From positions 3,876 to 67,875 of the forward strand of contig JAFTHW010000007.1 of the NCBI GenBank assembly GCA_017457225.1: 64,000 nt of DNA. Reading direction: 5' to 3'. The position numbers and the translations under genes are program-made. The notes beneath the pieces are model-generated. The model was given only the letters and a program-made list of their open reading frames with translations, was not told where the DNA came from and made no database searches. Positions within the stretch are counted from its first letter, which is position 1; each line of letters begins with the position of its first letter. This DNA comes from Clostridia bacterium (GTDB taxonomy: Bacteria > Bacillota > Clostridia > Christensenellales > Borkfalkiaceae). This document shows positions 7,101-53,397 of the stretch, in pieces.

Positions 7101-10100
7101 GCGTATCATAGAGATAGTGTAAAAGATAATACTCCAAACGTATGGCATAAGTTTGAAGTATCGCTTTCGGTATTGCTTACGAACTGGGATAAACAAGGCG
7201 TAGGCGACGACGGTAACGGAGCGTCTGCGGCATTGGTAGGCTTTAATTCCAGTGGAACGGTAACGGGAAATTACGTTATTTATATGGCGGATTTGGCGAT
7301 CGAAACAACGGCAGCGCCCGATGCGATCGCTCCTTCCGTGGAAGAATTGAGTGGTGAAACGACGCTTGTCAACACCGACGAAACGCCGAGCTTGGATTTG
7401 AGCACGAAGATTTCTCCAGAAAATTTGACGAAACTCGAAAATTACTCCACGTTCAATGGCGTAAAGGGTTACTTTGACGTAACGTATGCGCTTGCAAAAG
7501 ACGGCGTAGCGGTTACGGTGAACGGTACGACGGTAGATTGCGACGGCTTGGTAGGCGTATACACGTTGACGGTATCCGTAGGCGGCGTAACGGCTTACGA
7601 AGCGACGTTGGACTTCTACAACGCAGAAAATGCGCCGATCACGCAGATTCCCACGATCACGACGATCAACGGCACGGTGGCAGAGCCTGTAGACGTAATC
7701 GGTTTGAATGGATACGGCTACGAATTGACGAGAATTTTGACGGCAGAACAGGTAACGGACTTGGAGAACGCAACCTCGTACAACGGCGTACCTTACAGCT
7801 ACCCCGTATCTTATAAGGTATACGCGGGCGAGGTAGAAGCGACCGTAACGGACGGCTTCGTAGCAACAGAAACGCTGAGAGGCGAATACACAGTAGAGAT
7901 CTATGTCGGTACGCAGTTGTTCTATACGGCAACCGTAACGTTTATAGACTCCTCCGATTCTTACGTATACAATACGGCAACGGACGTAAGCACGGTGAGC
8001 AAAACAGGCTGGGGTGGCAACATCACGGTAACGGCAGTGACGGCGGCAGAGCTTCCCATTGCATACACGGGCGAAGCAACGAACTTCCTGAAGATTAAGA
8101 ATTTGAACGGTAACAAGATCGCGATTGCGCCTGAAATGGACGCGGCTTATTACGAAGAGTTGAAAGGCAAAAACTATCTCGTAGCATTTGATTATTTGCT
8201 TTACACGAATGGTTGTGAAAATCCCGCAATCGTATTCCAGGGTGTGAGTGGTCAATATCAAACGAAGGGCGACGCGTGGGTAACGCGCGGTGACGGCAGC
8301 CAAATTGGTTTTGACTCGAATACGGAAGGCGCAAACAACACGTTGTATCTTGACAACTTGTTGGACGGCACGACGACGTATGTAATGTACACGTATGATA
8401 CACCCGACGGCTATGCAAATTGGGAACTGTACGTAGGTAATTTCCGCATTCTCAACACAGACGGAAGCGACCTCCCCGTAGGCAAAGTAGAGCCTGAAAT
8501 TGAGTCGGCCATTGAAAATGCAGAAACAACGAAGATCGACCTGATCGGTTTGGCTAACTACTCCTACGACCTGTCTACGCTTTTGCCGAATGAGTACGAG
8601 GATGATCTCGCTACGGCAAGATCGTTCAACGGCAGAGAAGAAGTCTTCGACGTAACGTATGCGTTGAAGCAGGGTGAAAACGAAGTAGAACTTAGCGGCT
8701 CTTTCGTTCCTTGCGCTTCCGTAAGCGGTGACTACACGTTAGAAATCTACGTAGGCGGCGTATTGTTCTACACCGCTCCCGTAAACTTCTACGATTCCTC
8801 TGTGCGCGTATGGAATACGATTAACGCAGATAAGACCGGCGCGGCGTTTACCTCTAACGGTACGGTGAACGCTTGGTATGGATCGGTAACGTATCTTGAA
8901 ACGTATGCAAACAAAGAAAATGTTTACGCGATCACGATGACAGAAAACGCAAATCAGTTCAACGGTATTTCGATCAAGGCAATGTATGAGAAATCCTATT
9001 ACGAGGCTATTTTGGCGGCTGATCCTAACGCGAAAGTAACGTTCTATTTGTATTGGGAAGATTTGAAGGGCGTAGACCAAATTACGGTCAACAGTGAAAT
9101 TCATTATAATAGAGAAACTTTAAAGGATAAGACTCCGAATGTATGGCAAAAGTTTGAAGTATCGCTTTCGGTATTGCTTACGAATTGGGATTACCAAGGC
9201 GTAGCAAGCGTAAGCTGGGGCGGAGCAGATGCGGCATTGGTAGGCTTTAACTCCAGTACGTCAACGGTAACGGGAAATTACGTTATTTATATGGCGGATT
9301 TGGCGATCGAAACGACGGCGGTCGACACGGTAGAGCCTACGATTACGCAAGTTTTGAGAGGTGAAACGACGCTTGTCAACACCGACGAAACGCCGAACTT
9401 GGATTTGAGTGAAACCATCTTGGAAGCAAACAAAACAGCGCTCGAAAGCTATCGTGCGTTCAACGGCGTAGCGACGTACTTCGATGTAACGTACGCGCTT
9501 GCAAAAGGCGAAGAAACGGTTATGGTAAACGGCTCTTCCGTTGCTTGTGACGGTTTGGTAGGCGTATACGATTTGACGGCATTTGTAGGCGGCGAAATCG
9601 CTTACACGGCAACGATTGACTTCTATAACAGCGAAGTAGCTCCCGAAACGGCAACGCCTACGTTCGACGCGAGAACGGCGGAAACGACGAAAGTAAATGT
9701 TCTCGGCTTGTCCGCGTACGAATACGATTTCTTGAGCGTTTTGACGGCAGACGACAAAGTTGCGTTGAGCTCGGCAAGAGAATTTAACGGCGAAGCGAAC
9801 GTCTTCCCTGTAACCTATCAAGTATTGCAAGGCGAAACGGTAGTGTCGAGTGGCACGAAAGTTTCGTTCGCAGAGCTTGCAGGCGACTACACGTTTGAAA
9901 TTTATGTAGGCGGCGTATTGTTCTACACCGCTCCCGTAAACTTCTACGATTCCTCCGATCCGTTCGTATGGAACGTAATCAGCGCGGAAAAGAACGGCGT
10001 TGACTATATGTGTAACGGTGCTGTTAAAAATTCTTGGGGTTCCATTGAATATTTGGAAACATACGCGAATGCAAGCGACGTTTATAAAGTAACGACGACG

Positions 10101-13100
10101 AATAATTACGAGTATTTTAACGGTATTTCAATCAAGGCAATGCACGACAAATCCTATTACCAAGAAATTTTGGATAAGGACGCATCGGCAAAACTCACGT
10201 TCCAGGTATATTGGGAAGATGTAAAAGGAGCTCAGTATCTTACGGAGAACAAATCGAGTGCTTATCAGAGAGAATATATTCCAGAAGAAGCATCTACGTG
10301 GCATACGTATGAGATACCTCTTTCGCGGTTGCTCGACAACTGGGATTATATGGGTGGCACTAACGGTGACTCGCGTTCGATCTTGGTTGCGATAGGCGAG
10401 GGCGCAACGGAGAACTTCTCATTCTATTTTGCGAATATGGCGCTTGAAACGACGGCAACGCCTGACACGGTAGATCCTACCGTAGAATTGGTGACGGGCG
10501 CGGCGCAATCCGTCAATATGGCAGGCAATACGACGTTTGACTTGACGTCCACGATTTCGGGCGTAAATCAAGTAAAACTCGAGGCAATGAACGTATTCGA
10601 TAAGAATGCGTATATGACGGTAGAAAACTACTTTGAGGTAACCTACACGCTCACGCAGGGTGAAACGGTTTACGATCTTGGCACGAGTGCTTCGATCGAT
10701 TCTTCCGCATACCTTGGCGACTATACGTTCAACGTATATATCGGCGGCGTAGAAGCGTACGAATCCACGCTTACCCTCTACAACACCGACAACGGTTACG
10801 AATGGAACGTAATCAGCTCGGCAAAAGACGGCGTTGACTATATGTGTAACGGTGTGATTAGCAATGCTTCTGGTACGATCGAATATTTGGAAAGCTATGC
10901 AGAAGTAAATGATGTATACAAACTGACGACGACGACAGATTACAACCAGTTTAACGGTATCGGTATTACGCCTATGCACGACAAGTCCTATTACCAAGAA
11001 CTTGCGGAAATGGATGCGTCGGCAAAACTTACGTTCCAAATTTATTGGGAAGATTTGAAAGGCGCTACATACCTTACGCCTATGCAGACGGGCTCTTGGG
11101 GAAGACAGTCCAAAGGAAACAGAACTGAAAATACGTGGCACACGTACGAGATTTCTCTTTCTACGATTCTGGCAAACTGGGATAAGTTAGGTGTTTCGCA
11201 GCCGGGTAGCGGTGGTGCTCAAAATACTATTTTCGGTATCGATAATGGCGCAACGGAGAACTTCTCATTCTATTTTGCGAATATGGAATTGGTAGTAGAC
11301 GTTCCCGAATATTTCTACGAAGCAACAGAAGAAGAAACCGAAAACGTTGTATGGAACTCCGTAAACCCTGAACGTATCACCGATTATACGGCATATTACG
11401 TTAACCAGCCTGTATCTTGGAGAGGCGGCACGAGCTTTATCTCCGTTGACAAACTCAGCGAAGAAAATGCGTTGGGTGGCAGAACGGAAGGCGCGTACTA
11501 TCTCGTTACGATGGATACAAGCAATGCGGATTGCTATCACTACTTTGCATTAAAGCCTTTGTTTGACAAAGCAACCTATCAAAACAATTACGATCTCTCC
11601 ACGGCAACGTTGACGTTCGACTTCTGTTTTAAGAACGTAGCGGCAACGCCTACGTCCACGCCTACCTTGAGAAAAGTTAATCCTCTCGGCGGCGCGGCGA
11701 TAAACGCGCAGGCGGACACGTGGTACACGTTTGAAGTTTCGTTGGCGAAATTGCTTGAAAATTGGGATGAATTCCAAACACCCAATACGAACGATGAGTC
11801 AGATCTGTGCTCGATCTTCAAGTTGGAAAGCACGTTCGGCTCTGACGAAAATAAGGATTCCGATCCCGTGAATATGTGGTTTGGTAACTTCGAGTTGTCG
11901 GGTAAGAAAGACGCAGACAACACGGTTGGCAAAGCGGAGAACAACACGGATGCGACCATTTGGACGGCAACCGGCGAGAAGATCTTGCAGAATAAGACGT
12001 ACGAAGTTGGCGCGGAAGCGCTCGAAATCAACGCATTCCGCAACGAGTACGAATCCGCGCAGATCATTATGACGGCTACGTCCGAAATGACGTACACGAT
12101 TGAACTTGCAGACTTGACGGATAGATGGGGCAACGTCCTTTCGGCGGATTGCTTCGATATCTACCATCAGTTGTATATTGAAGTATCGCGTTCGACCGAT
12201 CCTTTCAATTCGCAGGGCGCAGGCTTCTATCCCGACGCATTGTTGCCTTACAGCGCGGCGGTGCTCAAGGGCATCAACACGACGGCAAACGGCAACCAGG
12301 GTATTTGGGTAACGGTTAACGTACCGAAAGATCAGGAAGCAGGCGTTTACACGGGCGCATTCACGCTCACGATCGACGGTAAGACGGCGACAGTTCCCGT
12401 ATGCGTAACGGTTTACGATTACACGCTCTCTGACGAAGTCCACAGCACGAACACGTTCAGCTTCAACTGGGCAGCGGTTGCGGCGGCGGAAGGCTTGTTC
12501 GCAGACGGCGTAACGGATTACAGCGAAGTAAGCGGCTCTAACGTACCTTACGAATTGCAGCAGATGTATCGTGACTTCTTGTCTGAGTACCGTATCAGTA
12601 CTCCTGCATTGGCGGGTTACACGGGCAGCGATTATACGAGTTGGGCGGGCTACGCGTATAGACCGAATGAAATCTTCAACTATACGAAAGAGAACGACGA
12701 ATTCACATCTACGTTCAAGCTGTTGAACAAAGATGAAACGGGCTATAGCAATATGACCGATTATGAGTTCAACGACAACGTTGAAAAGTGGTTGGTATCC
12801 GTAACGGAACAGCTTAAGAAAGATCCTGCATACAGAATCAACATTATTTCGCAGTCCACGCGTGTAAGAAGTGCGGTCATTGAAAGCACGGTTGCGGCGT
12901 TGAATAAGGACGCGGCTACGGAAGCTACGGCTTTGGCTGGCATTGATACGATTCACAATGTTCGAGATGGCTCTCAAGGTGGCGACGTGATCGACGAACT
13001 CGTATTGAGACACGTTATTGAAGAAATGTATCTTTACAGCGTAGAGAACAATATCAACTTGTTCGATCGTTCGTATATGTTCTTCAGCGGTATCGACGAA

Positions 13101-14759
13101 TTCGAATCTAAGGGCACGTTGGTCGGCGACGTAACTTGGACGGAATACGCTCTGTACGTTGTAAGCAGAATGAACGCGTTCTTCAACGCAGAAGAGGGCG
13201 AGGACGGTAATATGTCCGCTTGGTTGCGTGCGAAGTATGGCGTAGCGGAAGGAACGTTTGCAGATGAAATTTTGGCTTCCATCACGGCGTTCAAGATGTC
13301 GATCACGAGCAGTAAGATTTCGACGGCAGAACTCTTTGATTCGGTAGGCGTAGACGCAATCTTCGTTCCTACTTTGGATCAATATCACGACGCGGAAGAA
13401 TATGCGAAGTGGCAGGCGTACGCGGAAGCGCATAGCGGCAAGGTAATGTGGACGTACACGGCAATCCATCCCGATGCTCCTTACACCTCCTACCATATTG
13501 AAGACAACTTGCTTTCCGCAAGATTGCTCAACTGGATGATGTATGAAAAGGACACGGTAGGCAACTTGTACTGGTCGACGATGCTTTCGAGATATCTCGG
13601 CGGCTTCGACAACGATGGTACGATTATCTCCGGTATGGACTACTACACGGTGGCAGAGAAGTATCTGAACCAGAACGGTGAAGGCTTCTTGATCTATCCC
13701 GGTGAATGCTATTCGGTAACGGGCCCCGTAGGCAGCGTTCGTTTGCAAGCGATCCGCGACGGTGTAGAAGACTACGATTTGTTGTACGCTTTGGAAGAAT
13801 TGTACGTAAATCAAGGGTTGGAAAGCTTCGACGACGTATACGAATACTTGGCTGAAACGGTTTACTTCGGTACGAAAGTGAAGTACGGCTCCAACAGCTA
13901 CTATCTTGACGGCGACGCGACGTATCTTGACAACTTCGTATCGATGCGTGGAAACTTAGCAACCTTGCTTGAAATGGCAAGCGACGCGAACGTTCAAGCG
14001 TATCTGTCCGAAGCAAGCTTCGATAAGGAAAACAAGACGGTTACGTTCTCCATCAAGGCGGCTGACGGTATCTCCGTACTGGTCAACGGTGAGAAACTTA
14101 CGGCGGTAGACGGCGTATACACCAAGACCTTGTCTTTGACGAGCGTTGACTCCGTAAGCATTTTGGTCGGCGGCACGTACGAGCTCAACTTCTCGCTTGC
14201 GCATAAAGCAGAAGAAGCAAACGCAACGATTGAAGGGTTAACGAACGACTTCTTGGCAGGCGTTACGGTTACGGCTCACTACGGCACCACTGAAGATGGT
14301 ATTAGCGCAGGTTCGGCAGAATCGGCGGCTTCGGCTCCTACGGGCGCAGTAGCTGACGCGACGTATTATAGTATGAGTCTGGAAAAAGATTCAACTTACA
14401 ACGGCTTCACGTTCACCTTGACGGAAGAACTTAAAACGCTTTTGGAAAACTATTCCGACGACGCAGTTCTTCAGTACGACTTCTACATTGAAGAAGCAGG
14501 CGTTGATAACAGAGGCGTTTCCGGTTACTGGTTGGGTGCTCCGAGAACAGGTTATACCACGAACACTTGGATTACGTTGGAGGTTTCTATGAGAAGCGTC
14601 TTGAGTGCGAGCGGCACAGTGGTTGCTGGATCTGATGAGAATGGTGATCCTAGAGCCATGAGCGATATTTACAACAACGCATTGGCGACGCTGGGCTATG
14701 AGTATGTTCAAACCGATATGAACTTGTATATCGGTAACTTCAGAGTTGTTCAAGCATAA
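4173..14759 (+). CDS. Giant (~3530 aa) membrane-anchored modular glycoside-hydrolase candidate with a DUF4091/GH123-like catalytic region and many repeated beta-sandwich modules
   Basis: The ORF is uninterrupted for 10.6 kb. RBS GAGGAG precedes ATG 4173 (the track start at 4155 is an alternative). There is a signal-anchor KKPLLYLLTVLSAIVFALGVWFGL and a Big_2-like module (IDQNGTITAKSAGVTTLTATLG). DUF4091-like landmarks at nt ~11950-13810 include FYPDALLPY, GIDEFE and GEGFLIYPG...RLQAIRDGVEDYDLL. Confidence 0.9.
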   Translation: MSKAIKKPLLYLLTVLSAIVFALGVWFGLDTNQSSVTANAASYTRITGTASSESVNGKLTLNSFRTQTGGSVRLVAPKGLRYVTEISPADVAKLPENAVFGTLLMPKDKLGDNELVKGLVVNGAKAMDIKAMSWKDTTIATSSDKYTYTAVLVGSATADLPVSYYNRDIVARGYVTYTDAAGKTYTVYASNSQTRNIAYVANQTLINEGLTDEAETLMNTIIKTAVTSFAVNEDKVTLGVSKNTTYTITTTRTGLNGRSVDGLIPTYVIANTDVATIDQNGTITAKSAGVTTLTATLGNFTDTVEIVVQDTLWNNVDEITRINFTDYYMGANGKTGDGISNISVANLSEANAVGGRTGGSYYFVEQAYRDNASAESWRKATQRFVLKPYYDKTVYEAYANANQNASLSFDVYLTEALADGETPLKENYSYYLNGQTSPLKMSTNKWYTFQIPLSTLLTNWDAIKTPGETNDSTIALFSVAGEFSSATRELNFWIGNFTLSATTDTSTGPVIETVETSAMQLKDLAGMETFDLSSLLTDAQKESLEAIKGDYEVSYSVSYAGQNAEVNGSVMTTAGVDALSTVEIYVGTSMFYSAQMDFYTSFARSWNVISARMNGVDYMCNGQIKNDYGTIEYLENYAGVNDVYKLTTTTEYAQFNGISIMPMHGESYYQEIYDLDSSAKLTFQIYWEDLKGAEYLTPMSTISYDRQSKGNRTENTWHTYEIPLSTILANWELLGVSNGGSDARNTIFGVTNSVTDNYSFYFANMTLETTAIPAPELTAIEKTMQPVDVIGLEEYGYDLNRVLEDTEKEALATAKTYQEVYNYPVTYKLLQNGTEVYSGESVINTTAFKGVYTLEIYVSTALFYTAPIYIYDSSTEPYIWNVISAEKNGAAFTSNGTVNAWYGSVTYHNTYANKENVYAITTTANPDAFNGISIKAMYEKSYYEDILADDENAKVTFYLYWEDLMGVNQITVNKEVAYHRDSVKDNTPNVWHKFEVSLSVLLTNWDKQGVGDDGNGASAALVGFNSSGTVTGNYVIYMADLAIETTAAPDAIAPSVEELSGETTLVNTDETPSLDLSTKISPENLTKLENYSTFNGVKGYFDVTYALAKDGVAVTVNGTTVDCDGLVGVYTLTVSVGGVTAYEATLDFYNAENAPITQIPTITTINGTVAEPVDVIGLNGYGYELTRILTAEQVTDLENATSYNGVPYSYPVSYKVYAGEVEATVTDGFVATETLRGEYTVEIYVGTQLFYTATVTFIDSSDSYVYNTATDVSTVSKTGWGGNITVTAVTAAELPIAYTGEATNFLKIKNLNGNKIAIAPEMDAAYYEELKGKNYLVAFDYLLYTNGCENPAIVFQGVSGQYQTKGDAWVTRGDGSQIGFDSNTEGANNTLYLDNLLDGTTTYVMYTYDTPDGYANWELYVGNFRILNTDGSDLPVGKVEPEIESAIENAETTKIDLIGLANYSYDLSTLLPNEYEDDLATARSFNGREEVFDVTYALKQGENEVELSGSFVPCASVSGDYTLEIYVGGVLFYTAPVNFYDSSVRVWNTINADKTGAAFTSNGTVNAWYGSVTYLETYANKENVYAITMTENANQFNGISIKAMYEKSYYEAILAADPNAKVTFYLYWEDLKGVDQITVNSEIHYNRETLKDKTPNVWQKFEVSLSVLLTNWDYQGVASVSWGGADAALVGFNSSTSTVTGNYVIYMADLAIETTAVDTVEPTITQVLRGETTLVNTDETPNLDLSETILEANKTALESYRAFNGVATYFDVTYALAKGEETVMVNGSSVACDGLVGVYDLTAFVGGEIAYTATIDFYNSEVAPETATPTFDARTAETTKVNVLGLSAYEYDFLSVLTADDKVALSSAREFNGEANVFPVTYQVLQGETVVSSGTKVSFAELAGDYTFEIYVGGVLFYTAPVNFYDSSDPFVWNVISAEKNGVDYMCNGAVKNSWGSIEYLETYANASDVYKVTTTNNYEYFNGISIKAMHDKSYYQEILDKDASAKLTFQVYWEDVKGAQYLTENKSSAYQREYIPEEASTWHTYEIPLSRLLDNWDYMGGTNGDSRSILVAIGEGATENFSFYFANMALETTATPDTVDPTVELVTGAAQSVNMAGNTTFDLTSTISGVNQVKLEAMNVFDKNAYMTVENYFEVTYTLTQGETVYDLGTSASIDSSAYLGDYTFNVYIGGVEAYESTLTLYNTDNGYEWNVISSAKDGVDYMCNGVISNASGTIEYLESYAEVNDVYKLTTTTDYNQFNGIGITPMHDKSYYQELAEMDASAKLTFQIYWEDLKGATYLTPMQTGSWGRQSKGNRTENTWHTYEISLSTILANWDKLGVSQPGSGGAQNTIFGIDNGATENFSFYFANMELVVDVPEYFYEATEEETENVVWNSVNPERITDYTAYYVNQPVSWRGGTSFISVDKLSEENALGGRTEGAYYLVTMDTSNADCYHYFALKPLFDKATYQNNYDLSTATLTFDFCFKNVAATPTSTPTLRKVNPLGGAAINAQADTWYTFEVSLAKLLENWDEFQTPNTNDESDLCSIFKLESTFGSDENKDSDPVNMWFGNFELSGKKDADNTVGKAENNTDATIWTATGEKILQNKTYEVGAEALEINAFRNEYESAQIIMTATSEMTYTIELADLTDRWGNVLSADCFDIYHQLYIEVSRSTDPFNSQGAGFYPDALLPYSAAVLKGINTTANGNQGIWVTVNVPKDQEAGVYTGAFTLTIDGKTATVPVCVTVYDYTLSDEVHSTNTFSFNWAAVAAAEGLFADGVTDYSEVSGSNVPYELQQMYRDFLSEYRISTPALAGYTGSDYTSWAGYAYRPNEIFNYTKENDEFTSTFKLLNKDETGYSNMTDYEFNDNVEKWLVSVTEQLKKDPAYRINIISQSTRVRSAVIESTVAALNKDAATEATALAGIDTIHNVRDGSQGGDVIDELVLRHVIEEMYLYSVENNINLFDRSYMFFSGIDEFESKGTLVGDVTWTEYALYVVSRMNAFFNAEEGEDGNMSAWLRAKYGVAEGTFADEILASITAFKMSITSSKISTAELFDSVGVDAIFVPTLDQYHDAEEYAKWQAYAEAHSGKVMWTYTAIHPDAPYTSYHIEDNLLSARLLNWMMYEKDTVGNLYWSTMLSRYLGGFDNDGTIISGMDYYTVAEKYLNQNGEGFLIYPGECYSVTGPVGSVRLQAIRDGVEDYDLLYALEELYVNQGLESFDDVYEYLAETVYFGTKVKYGSNSYYLDGDATYLDNFVSMRGNLATLLEMASDANVQAYLSEASFDKENKTVTFSIKAADGISVLVNGEKLTAVDGVYTKTLSLTSVDSVSILVGGTYELNFSLAHKAEEANATIEGLTNDFLAGVTVTAHYGTTEDGISAGSAESAASAPTGAVADATYYSMSLEKDSTYNGFTFTLTEELKTLLENYSDDAVLQYDFYIEEAGVDNRGVSGYWLGAPRTGYTTNTWITLEVSMRSVLSASGTVVAGSDENGDPRAMSDIYNNALATLGYEYVQTDMNLYIGNFRVVQA
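5690..11299 (+). repeat. Intragenic array of alternating ~105-115-aa linker modules (8 copies) and ~165-aa beta-sandwich-like modules (5 copies plus 1 divergent)
   Basis: B modules lie at 5988-6485, 6810-7313, 8811-9320, 9969-10457 and 10803-11299, with a divergent one at 7960-8460. Perfect nucleotide identities: 6288-6348 = 11103-11163 (61 nt), 8751-8800 = 9906-9955 (50 nt), 6808-6840 = 9967-9999 (33 nt). Confidence 0.9.
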
Positions 14760-26270: not shown

Positions 26271-26615
26271 TTAAATTTTTTCTTTCAAAGTTTTGCAGCT
26301 TGAAATCAGCATTCGTCTAATTCGACCGCAAAGGTTACGGAACTTTTTGAATGTTTCTTCGTTTATGGCATTTGTGTTAAACAGTAGTTTTAACCACCCT
26401 TCTGTTTCACTACATTCCTTAAGTGCTATTTCAAACTTGGAAACCATATCCAACTTGCTCTGTCCGTAATTGGCTTCACGGATATTGGCATAAACACTGC
26501 TTAAACTTTTACGGATTTGAAATAAAGTATTTGACGAGGCTTTTATCTTTTGACAAAGTAGTTCTATTTCGGTGGCAAGTTGTTCGAAATAAATGAGCAA
26601 GTAATTCTTTGACAT
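26271..26615 (-). CDS. Four-helix-bundle protein (TIGR02436 / 23S rRNA intervening-sequence protein / Avd-like family)
   Basis: The protein is 114 aa. The pattern ...SSVYANIREANYGQSK.D....F.IALKECSETEGWLKLL is typical of this family. RBS AGAGGTG precedes ATG 26615. Confidence 0.7.
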   Translation of the reverse strand: MSKNYLLIYFEQLATEIELLCQKIKASSNTLFQIRKSLSSVYANIREANYGQSKLDMVSKFEIALKECSETEGWLKLLFNTNAINEETFKKFRNLCGRIRRMLISSCKTLKEKI

Positions 26616-26628
26616 ATATAACACCTCT

Positions 26629-27046
26629 TTATGTGTATTATATCACAAAGTTTAACTAAATCAAGGCATTAGCCTTGTATATCATCAATTTCGGAGAAAT
26701 TGCATATCACCAACACAGGGTGTTGTATATCATCATTGCGAAAGAGGATACAGCCTACGGCTGATGATATGCACTTTGGGTGATGATATCCAGACCTACG
26801 GTCTGATGATATACCATCGCTTTCGCAATGGATAAATATGTGTGTATTATATCACAAAGTTTAACTAAATCAAGGCAGTAGCCTTGTATATCATCAATTT
26901 CGGAGAAATTGCATATCACCAACACAGGGTGTTGTATATCATCATTGCGAAAGAGGATACAGCCTACGGCTGATAATATGCACTTTGGGTGATGATATCC
27001 AGACCTGCGGTCCGATGATATACCATCGCTTTCGCAATGGATAAAA
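26629..27046 (-). repeat. Tandem direct duplication, 2 x 209 bp (4 substitutions). Each unit holds six hairpin-plus-9-mer modules and a promoter
   Basis: Copy 1 is 26629-26837 and copy 2 is 26838-27046. The 9-mers are ATATCATCA x3 then TGATGATAT x3 (plus strand). Minus-strand promoters TTGATT-16-TGaTATAAT lie at 26637-26664 and 26846-26873. Confidence 0.9.
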
Positions 27047-27074: not shown

Positions 27075-27164
27075 TGGCGCAGAGAACAGGATTTGAACCT
27101 GCGGTGAGCTTCCACCCACACACGATTTCCAATCGTGCTCCTTAAACCACTCAGACATCTCTGC
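27075..27164 (-). tRNA. tRNA-Ser (anticodon GGA), class II with a long variable arm and encoded CCA
   Basis: I folded it manually. The acceptor is GCAGAGA/TCTCTGC, the anticodon arm CACGA-TTGGAAA-TCGTG, the T arm GCAGG-TTCAAAT-CCTGT, and the 3' end is GCCA. Confidence 0.85.
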
Positions 27165-29263: not shown

Positions 29264-30418
29264 GTGAAAATTTTACACACGTCCGATTGGCATATAGGAA
29301 AACGGCTTATGGGTCGAGAGCGTTTTGAGGAACAATCGCAGGTTTTAGACGAAATGATACGGATTGCGGAAACGGAGCAAGTCGAACTCATTCTCGTCGT
29401 AGGCGATATTTTCGACACCTACACGCCGAGCGCGGAAGCGGTGGAGTTGTTTTTCTCCAAAATCAAACTTCTAGCAGGGAAAGAGAGAGCGGTACTTCTC
29501 ATCAGTGGCAACCACGACGACGGATTCCGCCTTTCGGCAGTCTCTCCGCTTTCGGAGGAACAGGGCATCTACGTCGTCGGTAACGACCGCAAGCCCTTGC
29601 CAATCGGCGGAACGCGGAACGTCCGCGTCGCCCGTTCGGGAAAAGGCTATGCCGTGTTTGAAAATACGTCGGGGGAAAGGATATTCGTCTCCACCCTGCC
29701 CTACCCCAACGAAGCGAGATTCAAAGAAGAAAAATCCGAGCTTGGCTACGTGGAGCAGATGCAAAAATGGATCGCGGAGGGCGAAATCGGGAACACCGAT
29801 CACGATCCGTCCGTATTTATGGCGCACCTGTTCGTTGCAGGCGGAGCCGTTTCGGACAGCGAACGGGAGATAGACCTCGGCGGCGCGCGTGCCGTTCCCG
29901 TATCGGCACTTCCGAAAAGCGATTATATCGCGCTGGGGCATTTACACAAAAAACAACGTATGGGGAATCATTGTTATTACAGCGGCTCTCCCTTGCAATA
30001 TTCCTTTGACGAACGTCCCGACAAATCGGTCAAAATCTTCGACCTCACGAAAAACGGAGTGGAAAATCTCACGGATATTCCCTTGCAATCGGGCAAAAAG
30101 CTTGTGCGTTTGCAAGCGGAATCGATAAGCGCGGCGGAGTCGCTTTTAGCGGCGTACGCCAACGAATTGGTGGAGCTAAAACTCCTTCTCAACGCGCCTT
30201 TGGCGTCAGCGGACGCAAAAAGTTTGGCGGAGCGTGGGAATTTGGTATCCCTATTGACGGAGATCCAATCGGAGGAAACGATGCAAATCGAGTCACGGAA
30301 AGGTCTTTCGGGCGAACAGCTTTTTGAAACGTTTTACAAAACGCAGTATGATTCCGAGCCTAAAACGGAACTGAAAGAATTGTTTCTATCCCTGCTTTCC
30401 GAAACCGAGCACGAATAA
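29264..30418 (+). CDS. sbcD: Exonuclease SbcD (Mre11 family)
   Basis: It has a GTG start with RBS AAAGGAG. Motifs: MKILHTSDWHIG, VVGDIFD, GNHD, GHLH. Confidence 0.85.
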   Translation: MKILHTSDWHIGKRLMGRERFEEQSQVLDEMIRIAETEQVELILVVGDIFDTYTPSAEAVELFFSKIKLLAGKERAVLLISGNHDDGFRLSAVSPLSEEQGIYVVGNDRKPLPIGGTRNVRVARSGKGYAVFENTSGERIFVSTLPYPNEARFKEEKSELGYVEQMQKWIAEGEIGNTDHDPSVFMAHLFVAGGAVSDSEREIDLGGARAVPVSALPKSDYIALGHLHKKQRMGNHCYYSGSPLQYSFDERPDKSVKIFDLTKNGVENLTDIPLQSGKKLVRLQAESISAAESLLAAYANELVELKLLLNAPLASADAKSLAERGNLVSLLTEIQSEETMQIESRKGLSGEQLFETFYKTQYDSEPKTELKELFLSLLSETEHE

Positions 30419-30445
30419 AGAACAAACACGAACAAGGAGTGGGGA

Positions 30446-33034
30446 ATGAAGCCCGTCTATCTCGAATTTTGCGGTATCAACAGCTTTTCCGAAACGGCGA
30501 AAATTGATTTTCGCGCGTTGCTTTCGGGCGGTTTATTTGGTATTTTCGGGGATACGGGCAGCGGAAAAAGCACCATTCTCGACTGTATCCATTTTGCGCT
30601 GTACGGAGTCGTAGACCGCGTTCCCAAAGCTTTAAGCGATTGTATCAACTATCATTGCGACGGAGCGTACGTAGTCTTTGATTTCGAGATCACGACAGAG
30701 GGGGAACGGCACACCTATCGAGTCCGTCGGGAGCGCAAACGCAAAAACGGAGTCTCCAAGGCGTTCTTATACGAGTGCATAGACGATCGACTGCAAGCGC
30801 TTGCGGAGAACACCGACGAAGTGAATGCCGCGCTTGCAAGGATCATCGGCTTGACGTTCAACGATTTCAAGATGTGTATCGCCCTGCCGCAGGGGGATTT
30901 TGCGGCGCTTGTAAAATCGACGACGGCGGAGCGGGTAAAGCTCGTAGCGCGCCTCTTTGATTTGGAGAAGTACGGGGAAAAACTCTTTAAAAAAGTCAAT
31001 GAAAAATACTTTGCAGCGGATGCGGAAGTCAAGCTCGTAGAGGCGAAGATGGGCGAGAACGACGCTGCGGAAGAAGGGGCGATCGAGGCAAAGGAAGAAG
31101 AGATCCGCCTTTGCAAAGAGAGCCTTTTAAAAGCGGACGAACGTTTGAAGCTTGCGGAACGGGAATGGGAACGTTTGACCGCGCTCGAAAAGGAAAAACG
31201 GGAGTACGAAACGATTTGCGCGACGTTGGAAACGTATAAAAATCGGCTTCCCGCGATGGAAGAAAAACGCGCCCTTGTCGAGCGGTTGCCTGCAGCGAAA
31301 GGGGTAGCCGAAAAAGCGGCAGCGGCGGCGGAACACTTACTTAAGAAAACGGAAGCGGAGAAAAAACGTACGGAAACGGAGCTTTTATACGCGCAGGCGT
31401 GCGCGAAGCTTGCGGAGAAAAAGTCGGAACAGGGAAAGGAAACTTACGACGAAAAGATTTTAGAGTGTTCGTTACAGCTGGATAAAGTACGGGCGGCGCA
31501 AGGGGACGTAGAGGCGGCGGAAGCGGCGAAAAACGCGCTGGAAGACTGTAAAAAAGAGTACAACGCGTTGCGGGCGAAATGTCCGGAGGAAGCGTTTGAC
31601 AAGAAACTGTTAGAGATCGACGAAAAGATCGCAAAGCTAGGCGAGGAGGACGACCTGCTCTCCTATCTCAAACACCACTTCAAAGACGTATTTTTACCCG
31701 AGGCGTACGGCGAATTCCGCGCGGATTTGCGCGCATTGCAAGAAAAATACCCCGAGACTGCTTCGGACGTAGAAACGCTTTTAAAAAAATACACCCCCAC
31801 CGTCAGCGGGCAACAGCTCGACGTGGCGAGCGCCCATCTCGCGTTCAAGGAAACGGAACGCGAGAAGAAACGACTCAAGGGGGAACGGGAACAGATCGAA
31901 AACCGTTTTCGACTCTATCGGGAGAACGAATCGGCAAAAAATATGCTGATAGAGCGCGGAAAGATCCTCCGTCGCAACTACGAAGAGGCGACGGCGAAGA
32001 TCCAATCCCTGCAAGCGTTGGGCACGGCGGCGGAGCTTGAAAAACGGCTCGTGGCGCTCAAACGGGAACAGCAGACGCTCGCAGAGGAAATCGAACGGGC
32101 AACCGCAAGCGCGAACGCATACTTTGCCGAAGCGGAAAAACAAAAAGGCTTGGCGGCTTTGTATAGCGAATTGCGCGCCGAGTCGGAATCGGCTCTTTTC
32201 GATGCGTTGAAAGCGAGCGGATTTTCCTCCGTCCAAGAAGCAGAAAAATTGACGTTGGAGTTAGGCGACGAGGAATCGTGTAAACGAGAATACAAAGAAT
32301 TCTTCGATCGGTACGAATATTATAAGGTGAAGAGATCGGAAATAGACGAGAAAAAGTTCATAGGTTTGAACGAAACGGCGCTTTTAGCGGCGAAAGAAAG
32401 GAAACTTGCCTTGCAGGCAGAGCGCGACGGATTGACGGCGAGGGCGGCTTCTTTGGAAACGGAGAAAAAGCGGCTTGTAGAGATTCGGGACAAATATTTG
32501 GCTCTTGAAAAGGAAAAGAAAGGCAAAGAAAAGACAAGGGATCTTTGCGACGAACTCAGAAGCTTGCTTCGCAACAATCGGTTTTTGGAGTTTATCGCTT
32601 CGGAATATCTGCAAGAGATCTGTTTTGCGGCAAGCAAGACCTTGCTTTCGTTGACGGGTGGAAGATACTTTCTTTCGTACGAGAAAGAATTCAAGGTCGG
32701 CGACAATTTAGACGGGGGGAAACTCCGCGCGGTCAAAACGCTGTCGGGCGGCGAAACGTTTTTGGTTTCTCTCTCGCTCGCCTTATCGCTCAGCGCAGAG
32801 ATCTGTCGAAAGTCCTTACGCCCTATCGAGTTCTTCTTTTTGGACGAAGGATTCGGCACGTTGGACGGAAAGCTCGTGGATACGGTGATGGACGTACTCG
32901 GAAAATTGAGTAAAAATTTTGCGGTGGGGCTCATTTCTCACGTAGAGGAGTTAAAACACCGCATAGAAAATAAAATTTTGGTTACGGGAGCGACGGAGAC
33001 GAGCGGATCCAAGCTCCGCGTGGAAAGCTATTGA
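30446..33034 (+). CDS. sbcC: SbcC/Rad50-family ATPase
   Basis: Walker A is GDTGSGKST, followed by a long coiled coil, the signature LSGGE and Walker B FFLDEGFGTLD. No CxxC hook is seen. Confidence 0.85.
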   Translation: MKPVYLEFCGINSFSETAKIDFRALLSGGLFGIFGDTGSGKSTILDCIHFALYGVVDRVPKALSDCINYHCDGAYVVFDFEITTEGERHTYRVRRERKRKNGVSKAFLYECIDDRLQALAENTDEVNAALARIIGLTFNDFKMCIALPQGDFAALVKSTTAERVKLVARLFDLEKYGEKLFKKVNEKYFAADAEVKLVEAKMGENDAAEEGAIEAKEEEIRLCKESLLKADERLKLAEREWERLTALEKEKREYETICATLETYKNRLPAMEEKRALVERLPAAKGVAEKAAAAAEHLLKKTEAEKKRTETELLYAQACAKLAEKKSEQGKETYDEKILECSLQLDKVRAAQGDVEAAEAAKNALEDCKKEYNALRAKCPEEAFDKKLLEIDEKIAKLGEEDDLLSYLKHHFKDVFLPEAYGEFRADLRALQEKYPETASDVETLLKKYTPTVSGQQLDVASAHLAFKETEREKKRLKGEREQIENRFRLYRENESAKNMLIERGKILRRNYEEATAKIQSLQALGTAAELEKRLVALKREQQTLAEEIERATASANAYFAEAEKQKGLAALYSELRAESESALFDALKASGFSSVQEAEKLTLELGDEESCKREYKEFFDRYEYYKVKRSEIDEKKFIGLNETALLAAKERKLALQAERDGLTARAASLETEKKRLVEIRDKYLALEKEKKGKEKTRDLCDELRSLLRNNRFLEFIASEYLQEICFAASKTLLSLTGGRYFLSYEKEFKVGDNLDGGKLRAVKTLSGGETFLVSLSLALSLSAEICRKSLRPIEFFFLDEGFGTLDGKLVDTVMDVLGKLSKNFAVGLISHVEELKHRIENKILVTGATETSGSKLRVESY

Positions 33035-45085: not shown

Positions 45086-45784
45086 ATGAAAAAAATTGTG
45101 GCGATCGGCGGGGGAGAACTCCGTGAAAAAACGACTTTGGGTATAGACGAGTACATCGCGAAGCTCGCGAAAGAGCGCGCGGGGGACCGTCGCGCAAACG
45201 CGCTGTTTATTCCCACCGCCAGCCACGATTTTATGCCGTATTATAACACGTTTCACAAGGTCTATACGGGTGTATTCAATATCAAGACGGACGTTGCGCT
45301 GACGGTTTTTAAAGACGTGGATTTGGCGAGAATGAAAGAAAAATTCCTCAAAGCGGACGTGATCTACGTTGGCGGCGGCGACACCGTATTTATGATCGAG
45401 AGTTGGAAGCGCACGGGACTGCTTCCCTTGCTTCAAGACGCCTATGAAAGAGGCGTTATTTTAGCGGGGTTGTCCGCAGGAGCGATTTGTTGGTTTTCGG
45501 ATATTTATACGGATTCGGCGGCGGAACTCACGGGAGAACAGTACGCAATGTTTTCGGGATTGGGCTGGATAAAAGGCGTAATTTCTCCGCATTATGGCGC
45601 AAGAATGCTTGACTTTGATAAAATAGTGTGTTATAATTACGACTGTGCTTACGGGATCGAGGACAACGCAGCGATCGTGCTACAAGACGGCGAAATTGTC
45701 GGGAGTGTAACGAGCGGCGGTAAGGCTTGGAAGTTGGAGCGTAAGGACGGAGTTTTGGAGAAGACGGAGATCAAGCCTATCTAA
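45086..45784 (+). CDS. Peptidase S51 / type-1 glutamine-amidotransferase-like protein (peptidase E family)
   Basis: Motifs VGGGDTVFM and GLSAGAICWF (nucleophile Ser) are present. Confidence 0.7.
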   Translation: MKKIVAIGGGELREKTTLGIDEYIAKLAKERAGDRRANALFIPTASHDFMPYYNTFHKVYTGVFNIKTDVALTVFKDVDLARMKEKFLKADVIYVGGGDTVFMIESWKRTGLLPLLQDAYERGVILAGLSAGAICWFSDIYTDSAAELTGEQYAMFSGLGWIKGVISPHYGARMLDFDKIVCYNYDCAYGIEDNAAIVLQDGEIVGSVTSGGKAWKLERKDGVLEKTEIKPI

Positions 45785-45801: not shown

Positions 45802-45884
45802 GCGGATGTGGCGAATCTGGCAGACGCGCAGGTTTCAGGTTCCTGTGGGAGACCATATGGGTTCGAGTCCCTTCATCCGCACCA
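45802..45884 (+). tRNA. tRNA-Leu (anticodon CAG), class II with encoded CCA
   Basis: I folded it manually. The acceptor is GCGGATG/CATCCGC, the anticodon arm CAGGT-TTCAGGT-TCCTG, the variable arm TGG-GAGA-CCA, and the T loop TTCGAGT. Two U-U mismatches (31-39, 50-64) lower confidence slightly. Confidence 0.8.
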
Positions 45885-45891
45885 ACAAGAT

Positions 45892-46273
45892 GCACCCTTT
45901 GGGGTGCATTTTTCGTTGGTGCGGATGAAGGGAAGAACGAAGAAGCCATCGGGTTCGCGCGAGCCGTTGAAGACGGCGAAGCCCTGCCGAGGCTCCGCAA
46001 AGCGGAAACGGCGGATACCCTTCATCGCGGTATAATATAAATGCGAACGCACCCTTTGGGGTGCGTTTTTGCGTGGTGCGGATGAAGGGAAGAACGAAGA
46101 AACCATCGGGTTCGCGCGAGCTGTTGAAGACGGCGAAGCCCTGCCGAGGCTCCGCAAAGCGGAAACGGCAGATACCCTTCATCGCGGTATAATATAAATG
46201 CAAACGCACCCTTTGGGGTGCGTTTTTGCTTGGTGCGGATGAAGGGAAGAACGAAGAAGCCATTGGGTTCGGA
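45892..46273 (+). repeat. Tandem repeat, 157-bp unit x 2.4. Each unit starts with a terminator hairpin and contains a 17-nt antisense copy of the tRNA-Leu 3' end
   Basis: Units begin at 45892, 46049 and 46206 (GCACCCTTTGGGGTGC plus a T-run). TGGTGCGGATGAAGGGA occurs at 45917-45933, 46074-46090 and 46231-46247. Confidence 0.9.
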
Positions 46274-46970
46274 AAATGCTTGCATTTTTTTGGGAAAGCC
46301 AAGTCTCCTTTATCACGGTATAAAAACTATCGTGCTTCATGAGAAGAAGCCTTTGGGATTAAGAAACGCCCACACTCAATCGCAAATTTTCACGGAAACA
46401 CAAAGCTTCGTTACAAGCTAATTTTTTCTTTTTGAATTATCGATCAATTCATACGGAATTTTCATAAAGTCAAGGGGACGATAAAATAAATACAGTAGTT
46501 TTATTTTTCGTCAGACACTCCGATAATTTGCCTTTTTGCAAAAAACGCAAAAAAACAAATTTCGGTATCTTCCCCGTCGGGGCATTTCCTTGACTTTTGC
46601 AAATTCAACCTTACCTAAGTAAGGGTTGCAAGCGCGCCTTGCAACCCTGTTTCTATTGTGGGGGCTTGGTTAAGTCGAGCGTTTTCAAAATTAAAAAGGC
46701 AGGTAAAGGAAGTATGAACAAATTGAGAAAAGACGAGTTTAGAAAGCTTATCGAAATGCTTAAAAGTTAGGTTTCGATAGTGATGAAATCGTCGAAATTC
46801 TCTTATTTATCGAGAGTTAAAGTAAAATAAAAAAGCCGTTCGTTTCCGAACGGCAACACCCGAAGCGTAGGGTAAACAACCTGCCTACACCCTATGCTTC
46901 ACTCAAATCTAACAATAGTATAACACACCAAAAAACAAAAAGTCAATCATTTTTAAGGAGAAATTTTATT

Positions 46971-47090
46971 ATGAGGATTACTTGCAGTTGGGAAAAACCT
47001 TTAGGAACGTGTTACAGTCAATATGACGAAGAAAAAAACACCCCATCACGATTTACGGCGGTGGAAACGTACTTGCAGTATTTTGAATAA
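46971..47090 (+). CDS. 39-aa hypothetical small protein (MRITCSWEKPLGTCYSQYDEEKNTPSRFTAVETYLQYFE)
   Basis: RBS AAGGAG lies 10 nt upstream. An AT hairpin terminator (AAAGATTTagtAAATCTTTTT) follows directly. It is too short for the ORF track. Confidence 0.35.
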   Translation: MRITCSWEKPLGTCYSQYDEEKNTPSRFTAVETYLQYFE

Positions 47091-47364
47091 AAATAAAGAT
47101 TTAGTAAATCTTTTTGAGGAAAACAATGTTTAAAGAAAAAGATAGGCAAGTTGTTTTCATAGATTTTTGATGGTTGGAGAAGTTGCTGGGATTAATAAAG
47201 TTCCGCCGAGATTCCGCTCGGCTATGCCTCGCGCTTTTAGGGCGTTGCCCTAAAAGTTCGACAAGCTCAGAATGACAGCGGAACGATGCTAGAGTTGTGT
47301 GGGGGGGGGTAAATAGCGGAGGCGGAAAAATTTTTTTTGCCACCGCTTTTTTATACTCAATCAC

Positions 47365-47393
47365 TTGCATTCAAAAAGAGAAAATGTTATAAT
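47365..47393 (+). promoter_or_regulatory. Sigma-A promoter for pdxK (TTGCAT-17-TGtTATAAT)
   Basis: The -35 is at 47365-47370 and the -10 at 47388-47393. Confidence 0.55.
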
Positions 47394-47443
47394 ATTTTTA
47401 AAGGGAAACGGTGGGAAATTCTCGTTTGTAAGGAGATAAGATT

Positions 47444-52569: not shown

Positions 52570-52772
52570 AATATTCTTTGGGGCGAGGCGAAAATCCTCA
52601 CCGGCAGTAGAGTCTGCGAAGAACGGGCGCAAACACGCTCGTTCCCGAATCGGTGGAATTCCGATACCGACGGTATAGTCCGGATGGAAAAAAGAATGAA
52701 AAAACGCGGCGATAGGCCGCGCAAGTTTCGTATGTTTTTCGTCCGCCTCGATCTTTCGAGGCGGTTTTGTTA
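52570..52772 (+). promoter_or_regulatory. FMN riboswitch (RFN element) with a terminator expression platform
   Basis: The RFN core strings are GGGGCGAGGCGAAAATCCTCACCGGCAGT ... CGGTGGAATTCCGATACCGACGGTATAGTCCGGATGGAAAAAAGAAT. The terminator CCGCCTCG/CGAGGCGG plus TTTTGTT lies at 52743-52770. A riboflavin transporter gene follows. Confidence 0.9.
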
Positions 52773-52806: not shown

Positions 52807-53397
52807 ATGGAAGAAAACAAAATGCAGGAGGCAGGTACGGATTTAAAGGAAAAAAGACGACCCGTGAGCGCGAAAAAATTGGCGTTGATGGCGGTGTTCG
52901 TCGCGCTTTCTTACGGGGTCAGTTTTTTGGAAATTCCCATTTTTCCCGTTGCACCGTTTTTAAAGCTCGATTTGGGGAACGTGTTTATTTTATTGATCGG
53001 GTTTTTACTCGGACCGATCGAGGGGATCATCGTGTGCGCGCTTAAAGAGAGTTTGCGGCTCATTGGCAGTAGTTCGGGTGGAGTCGGGGAGTTGGCAAAT
53101 ATGTTGGTTACGACTTCGTATATTGCCGTTCCGACGATCGTATATCGATTCAGAAAGGGGTTGAAGAGTGTGACGCTCAGTCTTGTCGCGGCGTGTTTCG
53201 TCGGGGTGGGCGCGGCGCTTCTTGCCAACCGCTTTATCAATTTTCCTTTGTATATGGGAAAGGGGGCGGCGGCGAGTTTTAAAGAGTTTTTTGGGGTTAT
53301 CGTTGCGTTTAACTTTATTAAAACCGTTTCGGTGGGAGTGATTTGTTTCGCGCTCTATAAAAGACTCTCGAATTTCTTAAAAAAGATAAAAATTTGA
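52807..53397 (+). CDS. ribU: ECF-transporter S component for riboflavin
   Basis: It is a 196-aa polytopic protein (LDLGNVFILLIGFLLGPIEG) located directly behind an FMN riboswitch. Confidence 0.8.
   Translation: MEENKMQEAGTDLKEKRRPVSAKKLALMAVFVALSYGVSFLEIPIFPVAPFLKLDLGNVFILLIGFLLGPIEGIIVCALKESLRLIGSSSGGVGELANMLVTTSYIAVPTIVYRFRKGLKSVTLSLVAACFVGVGAALLANRFINFPLYMGKGAAASFKEFFGVIVAFNFIKTVSVGVICFALYKRLSNFLKKIKI

Follow-up and report, generated by a model that had tools for sequence, protein, structure and literature searches.

In an uncultured member of the Clostridia, the gene for tRNALeu(CAG) is followed by a tandem array that, judged from its sequence, consists of three copies (two young and one decayed) of a gene-less tRNALeu tail cassette. 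The array lies within a stretch of 64 kb (the window), which is ordinary chromosome of a metagenome-assembled genome (MAG). The reading that we favour, with middling confidence, is that of an RtT-like structured cassette, derived from a tRNA tail, mobile or else gained and lost at CCA, prone to tandem duplication, and with a read-through RNA that would fold into a four-way junction with a tRNA end. RtT itself, behind tRNATyr of E. coli, was already known in 1978 and has carried a small-RNA annotation since 1991. The reading draws on the anatomy of the cassettes, a fold conserved with compensatory changes, a patchy presence with breakpoints at CCA, one near-identical pair of cassettes, and an architecture that matches that of RtT.

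The tRNALeu(CAG) gene, with CCA encoded, is called at 45802–45884 (+ strand) by both ARAGORN and Rfam. In order, the locus comprises dnaB, sua5, a low-molecular-weight phosphatase gene, rpiB, upp, an S51 peptidase gene, the tRNA gene, the repeats, about 1.1 kb poor in open reading frames (ORFs), and a gene for a PdxK-like kinase; the tRNA site after rpiB-upp-S51 peptidase is kept in about 55 related loci. TRF gives a period of 157 bp, 2.4 copies, and 95% matches over 45892–46271, and a repeat search places the units at 45892–46048 and 46049–46205, with a 66-nt third copy at 46206–46271 that runs on to about 46323 as a decayed cassette with a different type of interior. Every unit opens with the hairpin GCACCC-TTTG-GGGTGC and then T5. 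The 17-mer TCCCTTCATCCGCACCA at the 3′ end of the tRNA (45868–45884) has perfect reverse complements at 45917–45933, 46074–46090, and 46231–46247; the first extends to 19 nt (45915–45933) and the third to 18 nt (46230–46247), the extended form being TCCCTTCATCCGCACCA(AC). Four matches of the 17-mer occur in the window, with 0.00 expected from 100 dinucleotide shuffles; its conservation is not statistically unusual given 2–3 copies in the window. An independent metagenome assembly (L001, ENA ERZ27256821, a 69.8-kb contig) agrees with the window at 99.97% identity across 8.7 kb and carries an equal number of repeats, so that an assembly artefact is unlikely. A second contig (L002) ends inside the tRNA, a common outcome at repeats.

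Terminator hairpin 1 (GCACCC TTTG GGGTGC, A, T5; 45892–45913, +) ends the tRNA transcript and is also the first element of unit 1; a hairpin of this type stands ahead of every cassette in the relatives. The tRNA 3′ end, the spacer, this hairpin, its T-run, and antisense arm 1 form a quasi-palindrome of 66 bp (45868–45933, no strand assigned), the 19-nt arms of which are 100% complementary. Cassette 1 (45917–46035, +), with an interior of type A1, scores 117.6 bits with our covariance model R1. In its minimum-energy fold (+ strand), the 5′ arm (45917–45932) pairs with a degenerate direct arm (46018–46032) to form a closing helix, P1, around the hairpins Ha (45942–45947 with 45951–45956), Hb (45963–45968 with 45972–45977), and Hc, which has an outer stem (45984–45989 with 46009–46014) and an inner one (45994–45998 with 46002–46006). 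Terminator hairpins 2 (46049–46070, +) and 3 (46206–46227, +), each with its T-run, were located from the sequence and the repeat search. Behind the former lies cassette 2 (46074–46192, +; type A1; 119.4 bits), 95% identical to cassette 1 and with the G-U variant GCUGUU/GACGGC in Hb. Behind the latter lies cassette 3 (46231–46323, +; 55.1 bits), a decayed, older A2 unit (GGGTTCGGAAAATGCTTGCATTTT...) with a direct arm degraded to CTCCTTTATCACGGTA, which alignments show to be homologous to cassettes in L050, L218, L225, and L229. The order is A1-A1-A2, the unit farthest from the tRNA being the most decayed.

Much of a preliminary description of this DNA is borne out here. The antisense 17-mers are real, as are the GC hairpin with T-run at the start of each unit and the number of repeats. 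In the minimum-energy fold, the antisense arm does pair with the partial direct copy CCCTTCATC-GCGG, which is the degenerate direct arm of the window units, to close a stem. That fold also contains the internal hairpins GCCGTT/GACGGC and UCCGC/GCGGA, and the change of GCCGT to GCTGT retains a G-U pair on the + strand only. The description of the units as non-coding structured elements agrees with a length of 157 (not divisible by 3), shifting frames, and a conserved fold; coding potential was ruled out on the period, the frame shifts, and the lack of any Pfam match overlapping the array.

Promoter-like sites are absent from both strands within 45885–46330. A sigma-70-like site, TTGACT-17-TATAAT with a TG extension (45609–45637, +; 11/12 consensus matches), lies 165 nt 5′ of the tRNA, within the last part of the S51 peptidase ORF; it is a putative promoter of the tRNA and of any transcripts that read through into the repeats. 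Its hexamers overlap invariant codons of the S51 peptidase family (LDFD...CYN), so that the sequence may serve both the protein and the tRNA promoter.

The comparison set held about 110 related loci, and a pattern scan of 185,579 species genomes gave 27 loci. The arrangement of S51 peptidase followed by tRNALeu(CAG) is kept in about 55 distinct loci (metagenomes and MAGs), and the sequence 3′ of the tRNA varies. Within that set, the repeat family stands beside the tRNA only in the window, L010, L012, L015, and L050; about 50 of the 55 close-relative loci are without a cassette. In L004, hairpin and antisense arm are found 2.7 kb downstream of the tRNA, beyond an inserted island. Of the 27 genome loci, about 17 contain cassettes (gut MAGs of Ca. 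Scatosoma, Christensenellaceae, Clostridiales, and Oscillospiraceae), counting L215, an opposite-strand tRNALeu match that also bears an array; the remaining 10 are plain tRNALeu genes on the opposite strand (about 5) and apparently unrelated matches. The sequences of L214, L223, and L229 end 120–170 nt upstream of the hairpin, so that absence of a tRNA nearby is uncertain there.

The family thus delimited consists of gene-less cassettes of 95–160 nt in gut Clostridia MAGs, each running from a terminator hairpin and T-run through an antisense arm and a structured interior to a directly oriented copy of the tRNA 3′ end. No Rfam family scores on them (RF00391, the RtT family, included), and they would make a novel candidate motif, of structured RNA or DNA, in gut Clostridia. 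In type A, the order is the hairpin GCACCC(C)-N4-6-(G)GGGTGC, T5-7, the antisense arm TGGYGCGGAYGAAGG(GA), about 20 nt in one of two versions, GGGTTC(G/A), an interior of 40–100 nt, the direct arm (CC)CTTCRTCCGCACCA, and a second, unrelated terminator. The 5′ arm is the inverse complement of the 3′ strand of the T-stem, the 3′ strand of the acceptor stem, and CCA, and GGGTTC(G/A) is a copy of the 5′ half of the T-arm that agrees with the local version of the tRNA (GTGTGGGTTCA vs. ATATGGGTTCG). At least three types of interior occur (A1, A2, A3), with modular recombination among them. The spacer bases that flank the hairpin are complementary and change together between species (CCA-CGC...GCG-TGG vs. 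CCA-ACGA...TCGT-TGG). The same type of hairpin serves as a plain tRNALeu terminator, with no cassette, in some Oscillospiraceae (L222, L226, L236), which hints that the unit may have arisen where the hairpin is native.

Intact direct copies of the tRNA 3′ end with CCA are present in L012, L050, L214, L216, the third unit of L225, and L235. Tandem arrays occur elsewhere with periods of 156 bp (L210), 146 bp (L225, three units), 115–117 bp (L224, three), and 166 bp (L221, three). Within arrays, the internal direct arms share a degenerate form (CATCACGGT or CATCGCGGT) and the last arm alone is intact; arrays thus grew, in part at least, by duplication. Perfect direct arms are combined with decayed antisense arms in L221.

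In per-sequence folds, the arms close P1 with the internal hairpins enclosed in every complete element (14/14 of type A, with 8–16 bp, and 4/4 of type B, described below). As modelled, the two arms are the closing helix of a cloverleaf-like four-way junction on the tRNA-sense strand, the internal hairpins of type A being Ha (a spacer with GGGUUC), Hb, and the two-part Hc; z-scores run from −2 to −7 across the 14 type A cassettes. The stems vary in sequence yet remain paired. Hb occurs as GCCGU/ACGGC, GCAAC/GUUGC, GCAAUC/GAUUGC, GGGC/GCCC, and GGAAAAUG/CAUUUUC; the inner stem of Hc as UCCGC/GCGGA, UCCAC/GUGGA, UUCUCG/CGAGAA, and ACUCCG/CGGAGU, with the G-U intermediate UUCCGC/GUGGAA; and the outer stem of Hc as CUGCCG/CGGCAG, UUGCCG/CGGCAA, and CUCCGA/UCGGAG. 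RNAalifold on a plain MAFFT alignment of mixed subtypes gave almost nothing, MAFFT having misplaced the Hc module, and the analysis was moved to per-sequence folds and a covariance-model alignment. The model was built from 14 sequences and the alignment (A4) holds 18 instances. In A4, 89% of the cells in modelled pairs are paired, vs. 79.6% after shuffling and 35%–53% with the partner slid. Changes on both sides are seen in 13 of the 23 modelled pairs, a level reached by 0/500 shuffles. The outer stem of Hc is paired at 100%, with compensatory changes in 5/6 pairs.

As the preliminary description had supposed, folding favours the plus (tRNA-sense) strand, which is the more stable in 16/18 elements. 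The helices of A4 contain 13 G-U cells vs. 6 A-C cells, and a contiguous T-run is on the + side of the hairpin in all cases. Fold stability, the excess of G-U, and the side of the T-run together amount to moderate evidence for the + strand.

A second, previously undescribed family of elements (type B) follows the same logic as type A with another interior. It is found behind tRNALeu(CAG) in L014 (4790–4990), L070 (2215–2412), L219 (6000–6165), L230 (315–480), and L033 (8620–8700), and is made of a terminator, an arm of 11–13 nt antisense to the T-loop and T-stem, an interior GAGGGTGGGAGCC...GGGGCGCGCCGCTAAAGGCG, and a 21-nt direct arm that begins in the T-loop. Its predicted fold leaves a free CCGCACCA tail, closer still to RtT; no Rfam match was obtained for it.

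Empty and filled sites differ precisely at CCA. The same second terminator stands right after the CCA of the tRNA in L013, in L004 and L034, and in L006, and after cassette plus direct arm in their respective counterparts L012, L216, and L235, and direct repeats of the tRNA 3′ end flank the inserted DNA. On sequence comparison, these pairs fit insertion with duplication of the tRNA end and, equally, deletion between direct repeats. In L219 and L235, hairpin and A3 cassette are 99.4% identical over 160 nt, the identity breaks off exactly at the direct-arm CCA, and the genes on either side are 72%–78% identical, which points to horizontal movement of the cassette alone. Segments of the window cassettes are 90%–93% identical to L218, where the flanking genes are at about 73%. 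The empty and filled sites and the L219/L235 pair are in keeping with the unusual mobile element envisaged as one option by the preliminary description. Specific searches of IMG/VR, the INPHARED phages, and the PLSDB plasmids gave no cassette match, and there is consequently no evidence that cassettes travel on a known phage or plasmid. A loose scan of IMG/VR with TCCGCRCCAN{15,45}TGGYGCGGA returned 120 loci (L090–L209); the pattern was too loose and these are unrelated GC-rich phage palindromes. Among them, a palindrome of 40–41 nt, TCCGCGCCACGTTTTCG...CGTGGCGCGGA, recurs in many GC-rich viral contigs.

The repeats distal to tyrT-tyrV are said to have been described by Egan and Landy in 1978 and by Rossi et al. 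in 1981, and RtT in E. coli is a stable by-product RNA processed from the tRNA transcript. In Klebsiella, RtT is expressed and present in several copies, and its mode of action is still described in the literature as unknown; a study of rtT by Bosl and Kersten (1991) is cited in PMC3318445. In the tyrT-tyrV region of E. coli K-12 (L237), we find a 178-bp repeat in 3.14 copies, in a region annotated as rttR (171 nt) and tpr. The final 19 nt of tRNATyr are found six times in direct orientation (the two tRNA genes, one in the intergenic spacer, and three in the repeats downstream of tyrV), and an inverted copy of at least 11 nt of the tRNATyr end is not present. RF00391 matches four units there at 133–137 bits. 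In the RtT consensus, the closing stem is GgGaaGGAU : AUCCuuCcC, and its 5′ arm is complementary to the 3′ strand of the T-stem and acceptor in the tRNA-like end. Also present are a T-arm 5′ half copy (AAGGUUCGA), GC hairpins further inside, and CCACCA as a free tail.

The preliminary description knew of no bacterial element of this kind, but the E. coli repeats share the architecture of the cassettes. Both are tandem, lie just 3′ of a tRNA gene on the same strand (in the window and in its relatives), and are essentially non-coding. Both have the tRNA 3′ end, CCA included, copied in direct orientation at the end of the unit (in the relatives; degenerate in the window units). In both, a closing stem between a 5′ arm and a copy of the T-stem and acceptor strand is predicted around inner hairpins, and a T-arm 5′ half copy (AAGGUUCGA in RtT, GGGUUCG in the cassettes) precedes GC-rich inner hairpins. 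They differ in host and tRNA (tRNATyr in Enterobacteria vs. tRNALeu in Clostridia) and in the antisense arm, which in cassettes covers up to the whole 3′ end with ACCA (16–19 nt), whereas RtT has 8–10 bp and a free 9-nt tail. The cassettes have a four-way junction where RtT has a long second helix with two hairpins, and they show presence/absence polymorphism with one apparent horizontal transfer. An equivalent architecture, unrelated in sequence, is thus found behind tRNALeu in a distant phylum, and a single-species curiosity becomes a comparative problem. The material for comparison now includes a number of subtypes of the interior, stems with compensatory changes, sites that are cleanly empty or filled, and the apparent transfer. 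Either a general mechanism spawns tail elements at tRNA genes repeatedly, or there is a class of tiny mobile cassettes that dock at tRNA ends.

Under the RtT-like reading, the cassette would be transcribed by read-through from the tRNA promoter, and its RNA would fold co-transcriptionally into the four-way junction, leaving a tRNA-like ...CCGCACCA end followed by the next terminator. By analogy with RtT in E. coli, the machinery that acts on tRNA ends may then trim the cassette into a stable by-product RNA. The cassette's own terminator would make insertion harmless to the tRNA, and arrays would grow through insertion at CCA and through unequal recombination between the repeated hairpins and arms. 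In the predicted read-through RNA, a long hairpin between the tRNA end and arm 1 (that is, pairing of the antisense arm with the tRNA 3′ strand across the terminator, as the preliminary description proposed) beats the cloverleaf in both minimum-energy and centroid folds, and in an array direct arm n is able to pair with antisense arm n+1. These pairings imply two exclusive conformations; if the RNA folds as it is transcribed, the tRNA and P1 would have the advantage.

Several observations weigh against this reading. Each cassette lies directly behind a canonical terminator hairpin with T5-7 and the array is without a promoter-like site, so that cassette RNA could arise only by read-through; RtT units, in contrast, show no such hairpin with T-run in front. 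The 5′ arm of an intact cassette pairs with the ACCA tail as well (through TGGT), which makes the element look a poor substrate for RNase P and the enzymes of tRNA ends and more like a palindrome at the level of DNA. The direct arms in the window have just 9+3 nt, and pairing in P1 alone cannot explain perfect 17-mers. A4 was fitted to the model structure, and its covariation figures lean accordingly towards the model. The strand evidence is modest (13 G-U vs. 6 A-C cells, in sequences related to one another), and a folded single DNA strand would give an identical strand signature. Finally, RF00391 gives no match on the Clostridia cassettes, either at the gathering threshold or at E ≤ 5–10, which makes the likeness to RtT an analogy and not a demonstrated homology.

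The main alternative, which we regard as unlikely, if credible, is a DNA-level relic or miniature integrative element, the leftover or non-autonomous passenger of integrators at the tRNALeu 3′ end, with an integrase acting in trans. The direct arm would then be attR, hairpin and antisense arm would be element-borne and lie by attL, and the hairpins would serve recombination or be incidental. The 3′ ends of tRNA genes are well known for attL/attR duplications and for tandem accretion of integrative elements, including non-autonomous, cis-mobilizable ones (the CIMEs of Streptococcus); the sublocations within tRNA genes that such elements use were reportedly treated by Williams in 2002. Like these elements, the cassettes are inserted precisely at the 3′ end of the tRNA (direct repeat, 13–21 nt), supply a new terminator, can follow one another behind a single tRNA (type B before type A in L219 and L230, A1-A1-A2 in the window with the distal unit most decayed), and have empty and filled alleles precise at CCA; the near-identity of the L219 and L235 cassettes in diverged backgrounds would also be accounted for. 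The preliminary description contrasted the antisense copies with the direct orientation in which integrases duplicate tRNA ends, a contrast that does not discriminate because cassettes bear both a direct and an inverted copy.

The locus is moreover the marker of a busy integration hotspot. In L007, a phage-type integrase, unrelated to the cassettes, directly follows tRNALeu, and in L003 helicase and DUF genes do. In L033, an insert of 2.8 kb (5807–8586) stands after tRNALeu between 15-nt direct repeats of the tRNA end; its genes specify a BspA-type LRR_5 protein and a weak DUF3644-like protein but no integrase, and it can be described as a gene cassette that shares the docking point and brings no recombinase of its own. 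Iteron islands, with AATCGTTAAAATTATGGG at one end and GAACCCATTTTG at the other, are inserted exactly after ...CCGCACCA (of the tRNA or of a cassette direct arm) in L006 (3802–4110), L235 (7708–8000), L232 (1215–3900), L004 (3808–6515), and L233 (2060–2170), a placement after CCA that again suits a DNA-level element. They show no visible direct repeat, and no recombinase was found in the stretches examined; the island of L004 carries a 23S_rRNA_IVP gene and a Big_2/LRR_5 surface-protein gene.

The cassettes themselves, unlike CIMEs and their kin, are gene-less, have an extra inverted core copy and an interior structure conserved with covariation, and at 95–160 nt are far under any known autonomous or arm-site-bearing attP. 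No site-specific recombinase is encoded by them or adjoins them in the window, which holds no integrase, and the viral, phage, and plasmid collections gave no match. Debris would not retain four helices by compensatory change, deletion between direct repeats of 13–17 nt accounts equally for the empty sites, and the shared degenerate internal arms point to growth partly by duplication. Compared with miniature inverted-repeat transposable elements, inverted arms are present and a short target-site duplication was not seen; no other copy of the cassette occurs in the window, and a single MAG bears at least two, on separate contigs (L223, L229).

The boldest version of this alternative, to our mind decidedly improbable, makes the cassettes gene-less recombination units that dock at the CCA end of tRNALeu; their two arms would fold, in single-stranded DNA, so as to reproduce the duplex tRNA 3′ end, and a recombinase acting in trans would insert cassette after cassette. 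The models for such folded sites are integron attC and the attP(+) hairpin of CTX-phi. With these, the cassettes share imperfect inverted repeats around a variable centre, conservation of structure rather than of sequence, and a recombination point at the outer end of the 3′ arm; as in attC arrays, growth is at one docking site with the proximal unit youngest (in the window only). Unlike them, they have no R″/R′ boxes (RYYYAAC/GTTRRRY), no ORF, and no IntI or Xer context, and their arms are copies of tRNA ends; on inspection, GTTGGTG misfits GTTRRRY and no integrase was found. Were it true, tRNALeu would be an integron-like accretion site in gut Clostridia, and the same origin would be suggested for E. 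coli RtT.

Neutral palindrome dynamics may have contributed to the origin of the cassettes; as the whole explanation they appear quite improbable. Template switching at a hairpin would have copied the tRNA end inversely, slippage or breakage would have duplicated the product, and the apparently compensatory changes would themselves be template switches. This would suit the complementarity of the spacer bases, which are no part of the tRNA and change along with each other, the A-run and T-run symmetric about the GC stem, the unit boundaries that fall in the hairpin loop (L219, L224), and a first pair of arms that always fits the adjacent tRNA (window, L004, L012, L050). The window also holds sbcD-like (Metallophos) and sbcC-like (AAA_23/SMC_N/SbcC Walker B) genes (29264–33034), which may be counted on the same side; the genome thus encodes a hairpin nuclease yet tolerates 66-bp quasi-palindromes at the tRNA. 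Left unexplained are the 99.4% identical cassette in two diverged genomes, cassettes at about 90% identity beside flanking genes at about 73%, the mismatch between arm and tRNA in L230, and the multi-helix interior shared across subtypes with modular reshuffling; one stepwise G-U intermediate stem was found as well (first unit of L225).

The role given to the antisense 17-mers by the preliminary description, that of a primer-binding site or of an anti-tRNA RNA acting in trans or cis (sequestration or processing control), is very improbable. The perfect complements of 17–19 nt do open with TGG as in a retroelement primer-binding site, and the predicted read-through RNA pairs the tRNA 3′ strand with arm 1 in place of the cloverleaf. 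However, the arm has its own partner across the family, in the direct copy at the other end of the cassette, so that the antisense 17-mer is half of the cassette's own closing helix, P1. Nor is the arm kept matched to the resident tRNA. The arms of L230 have CCCTTCGTCC or its complement (CTT) where the tRNA has CCCGTCGTCC (CGT); in L015, the arm agrees with the tRNA over about 12 nt only; in L221, the antisense arms are decayed. Since arms match each other while mismatching the local tRNA, they are not maintained to fit it; in the window the arm fits because direct arm and tRNA end are copies of one sequence. The cassettes have no long terminal repeat, their flanks are housekeeping genes, and domains of reverse transcriptases, integrases, or transposases were not found in any of the roughly 45 ORFs of the window. 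The arm moreover sits right after the terminator T-run, the 3′ strand of the mature tRNA is buried in its own helices, and tRNALeu biology does without the element in about 50 of 55 loci.

That the minus strand is the functional one, the units being decayed or derived tRNA-like genes that end in ...TCCCTTCATCCGCACCA and converge with tRNALeu on a bidirectional terminator, is hardly credible: each window unit does end on that strand in a perfect tRNA 3′ end and then a hairpin, a simple terminator scan flags the hairpins there, and the TGGC variants of the arm give G-U on the minus strand only, but the T5-7 is on the + side of every hairpin (with no adjacent T-run on the minus side in the window, L216, and L012), the + strand folds better, the GGGTTCG copy and the direct arm are in tRNA-sense orientation, and neither ARAGORN nor the Rfam tRNA model finds anything on the minus strand. 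A convergent pseudo-tRNA was also rejected on BLAST of the tRNA against the unit, which returns the 17-mer alone. A type III toxin–antitoxin system with ToxI-like repeats was discarded (no toxin gene adjoins the array, which is followed by the ORF-poor 1.1 kb and the PdxK-like kinase gene), as was a T-box (no Rfam match, wrong context).

The AT-rich stretch between the array and the PdxK-like gene (46330–47440) has terminator-like hairpins on both strands (46622–46648, +; 46854–46835, −) and is without counterpart in the compared related loci; it is possibly what remains of an older insertion. The window has another repeat behind a tRNA gene. The gene for tRNASer(GGA) (27075–27164, −) is directly followed by a 209-bp tandem repeat in 2.0 copies, 98% identical (26632–27045), that holds no copy of the tRNA end. 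It is made up of short hairpins, each followed by (T/A)ATATCATC, and then the inverse GATGATATAC, and it ends in an extended −10 box in front of a gene for a 117-aa protein of the 23S_rRNA_IVP family (26271–26624, −; Pfam E = 5e-18). The layout behind tRNALeu in L004 is alike (tRNA, terminator, a region of hairpins and short motifs, a 23S_rRNA_IVP gene), and the tRNASer repeat region is possibly a small island with an operator array.

Elsewhere in the window, a single ORF of 3534 aa (4155–14759) adjoins genes for a lacto-N-biose phosphorylase and a GH95 enzyme; its sole Pfam match is the GH123 N-terminal domain at residues 2618–2739, and its product is probably a giant cell-surface glycoside hydrolase. 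A flavin mononucleotide (FMN) riboswitch (52570–52700, 98.8 bits) lies upstream of the gene for the S component of an energy-coupling factor (ECF) riboflavin transporter (52807–53397), an ordinary arrangement.

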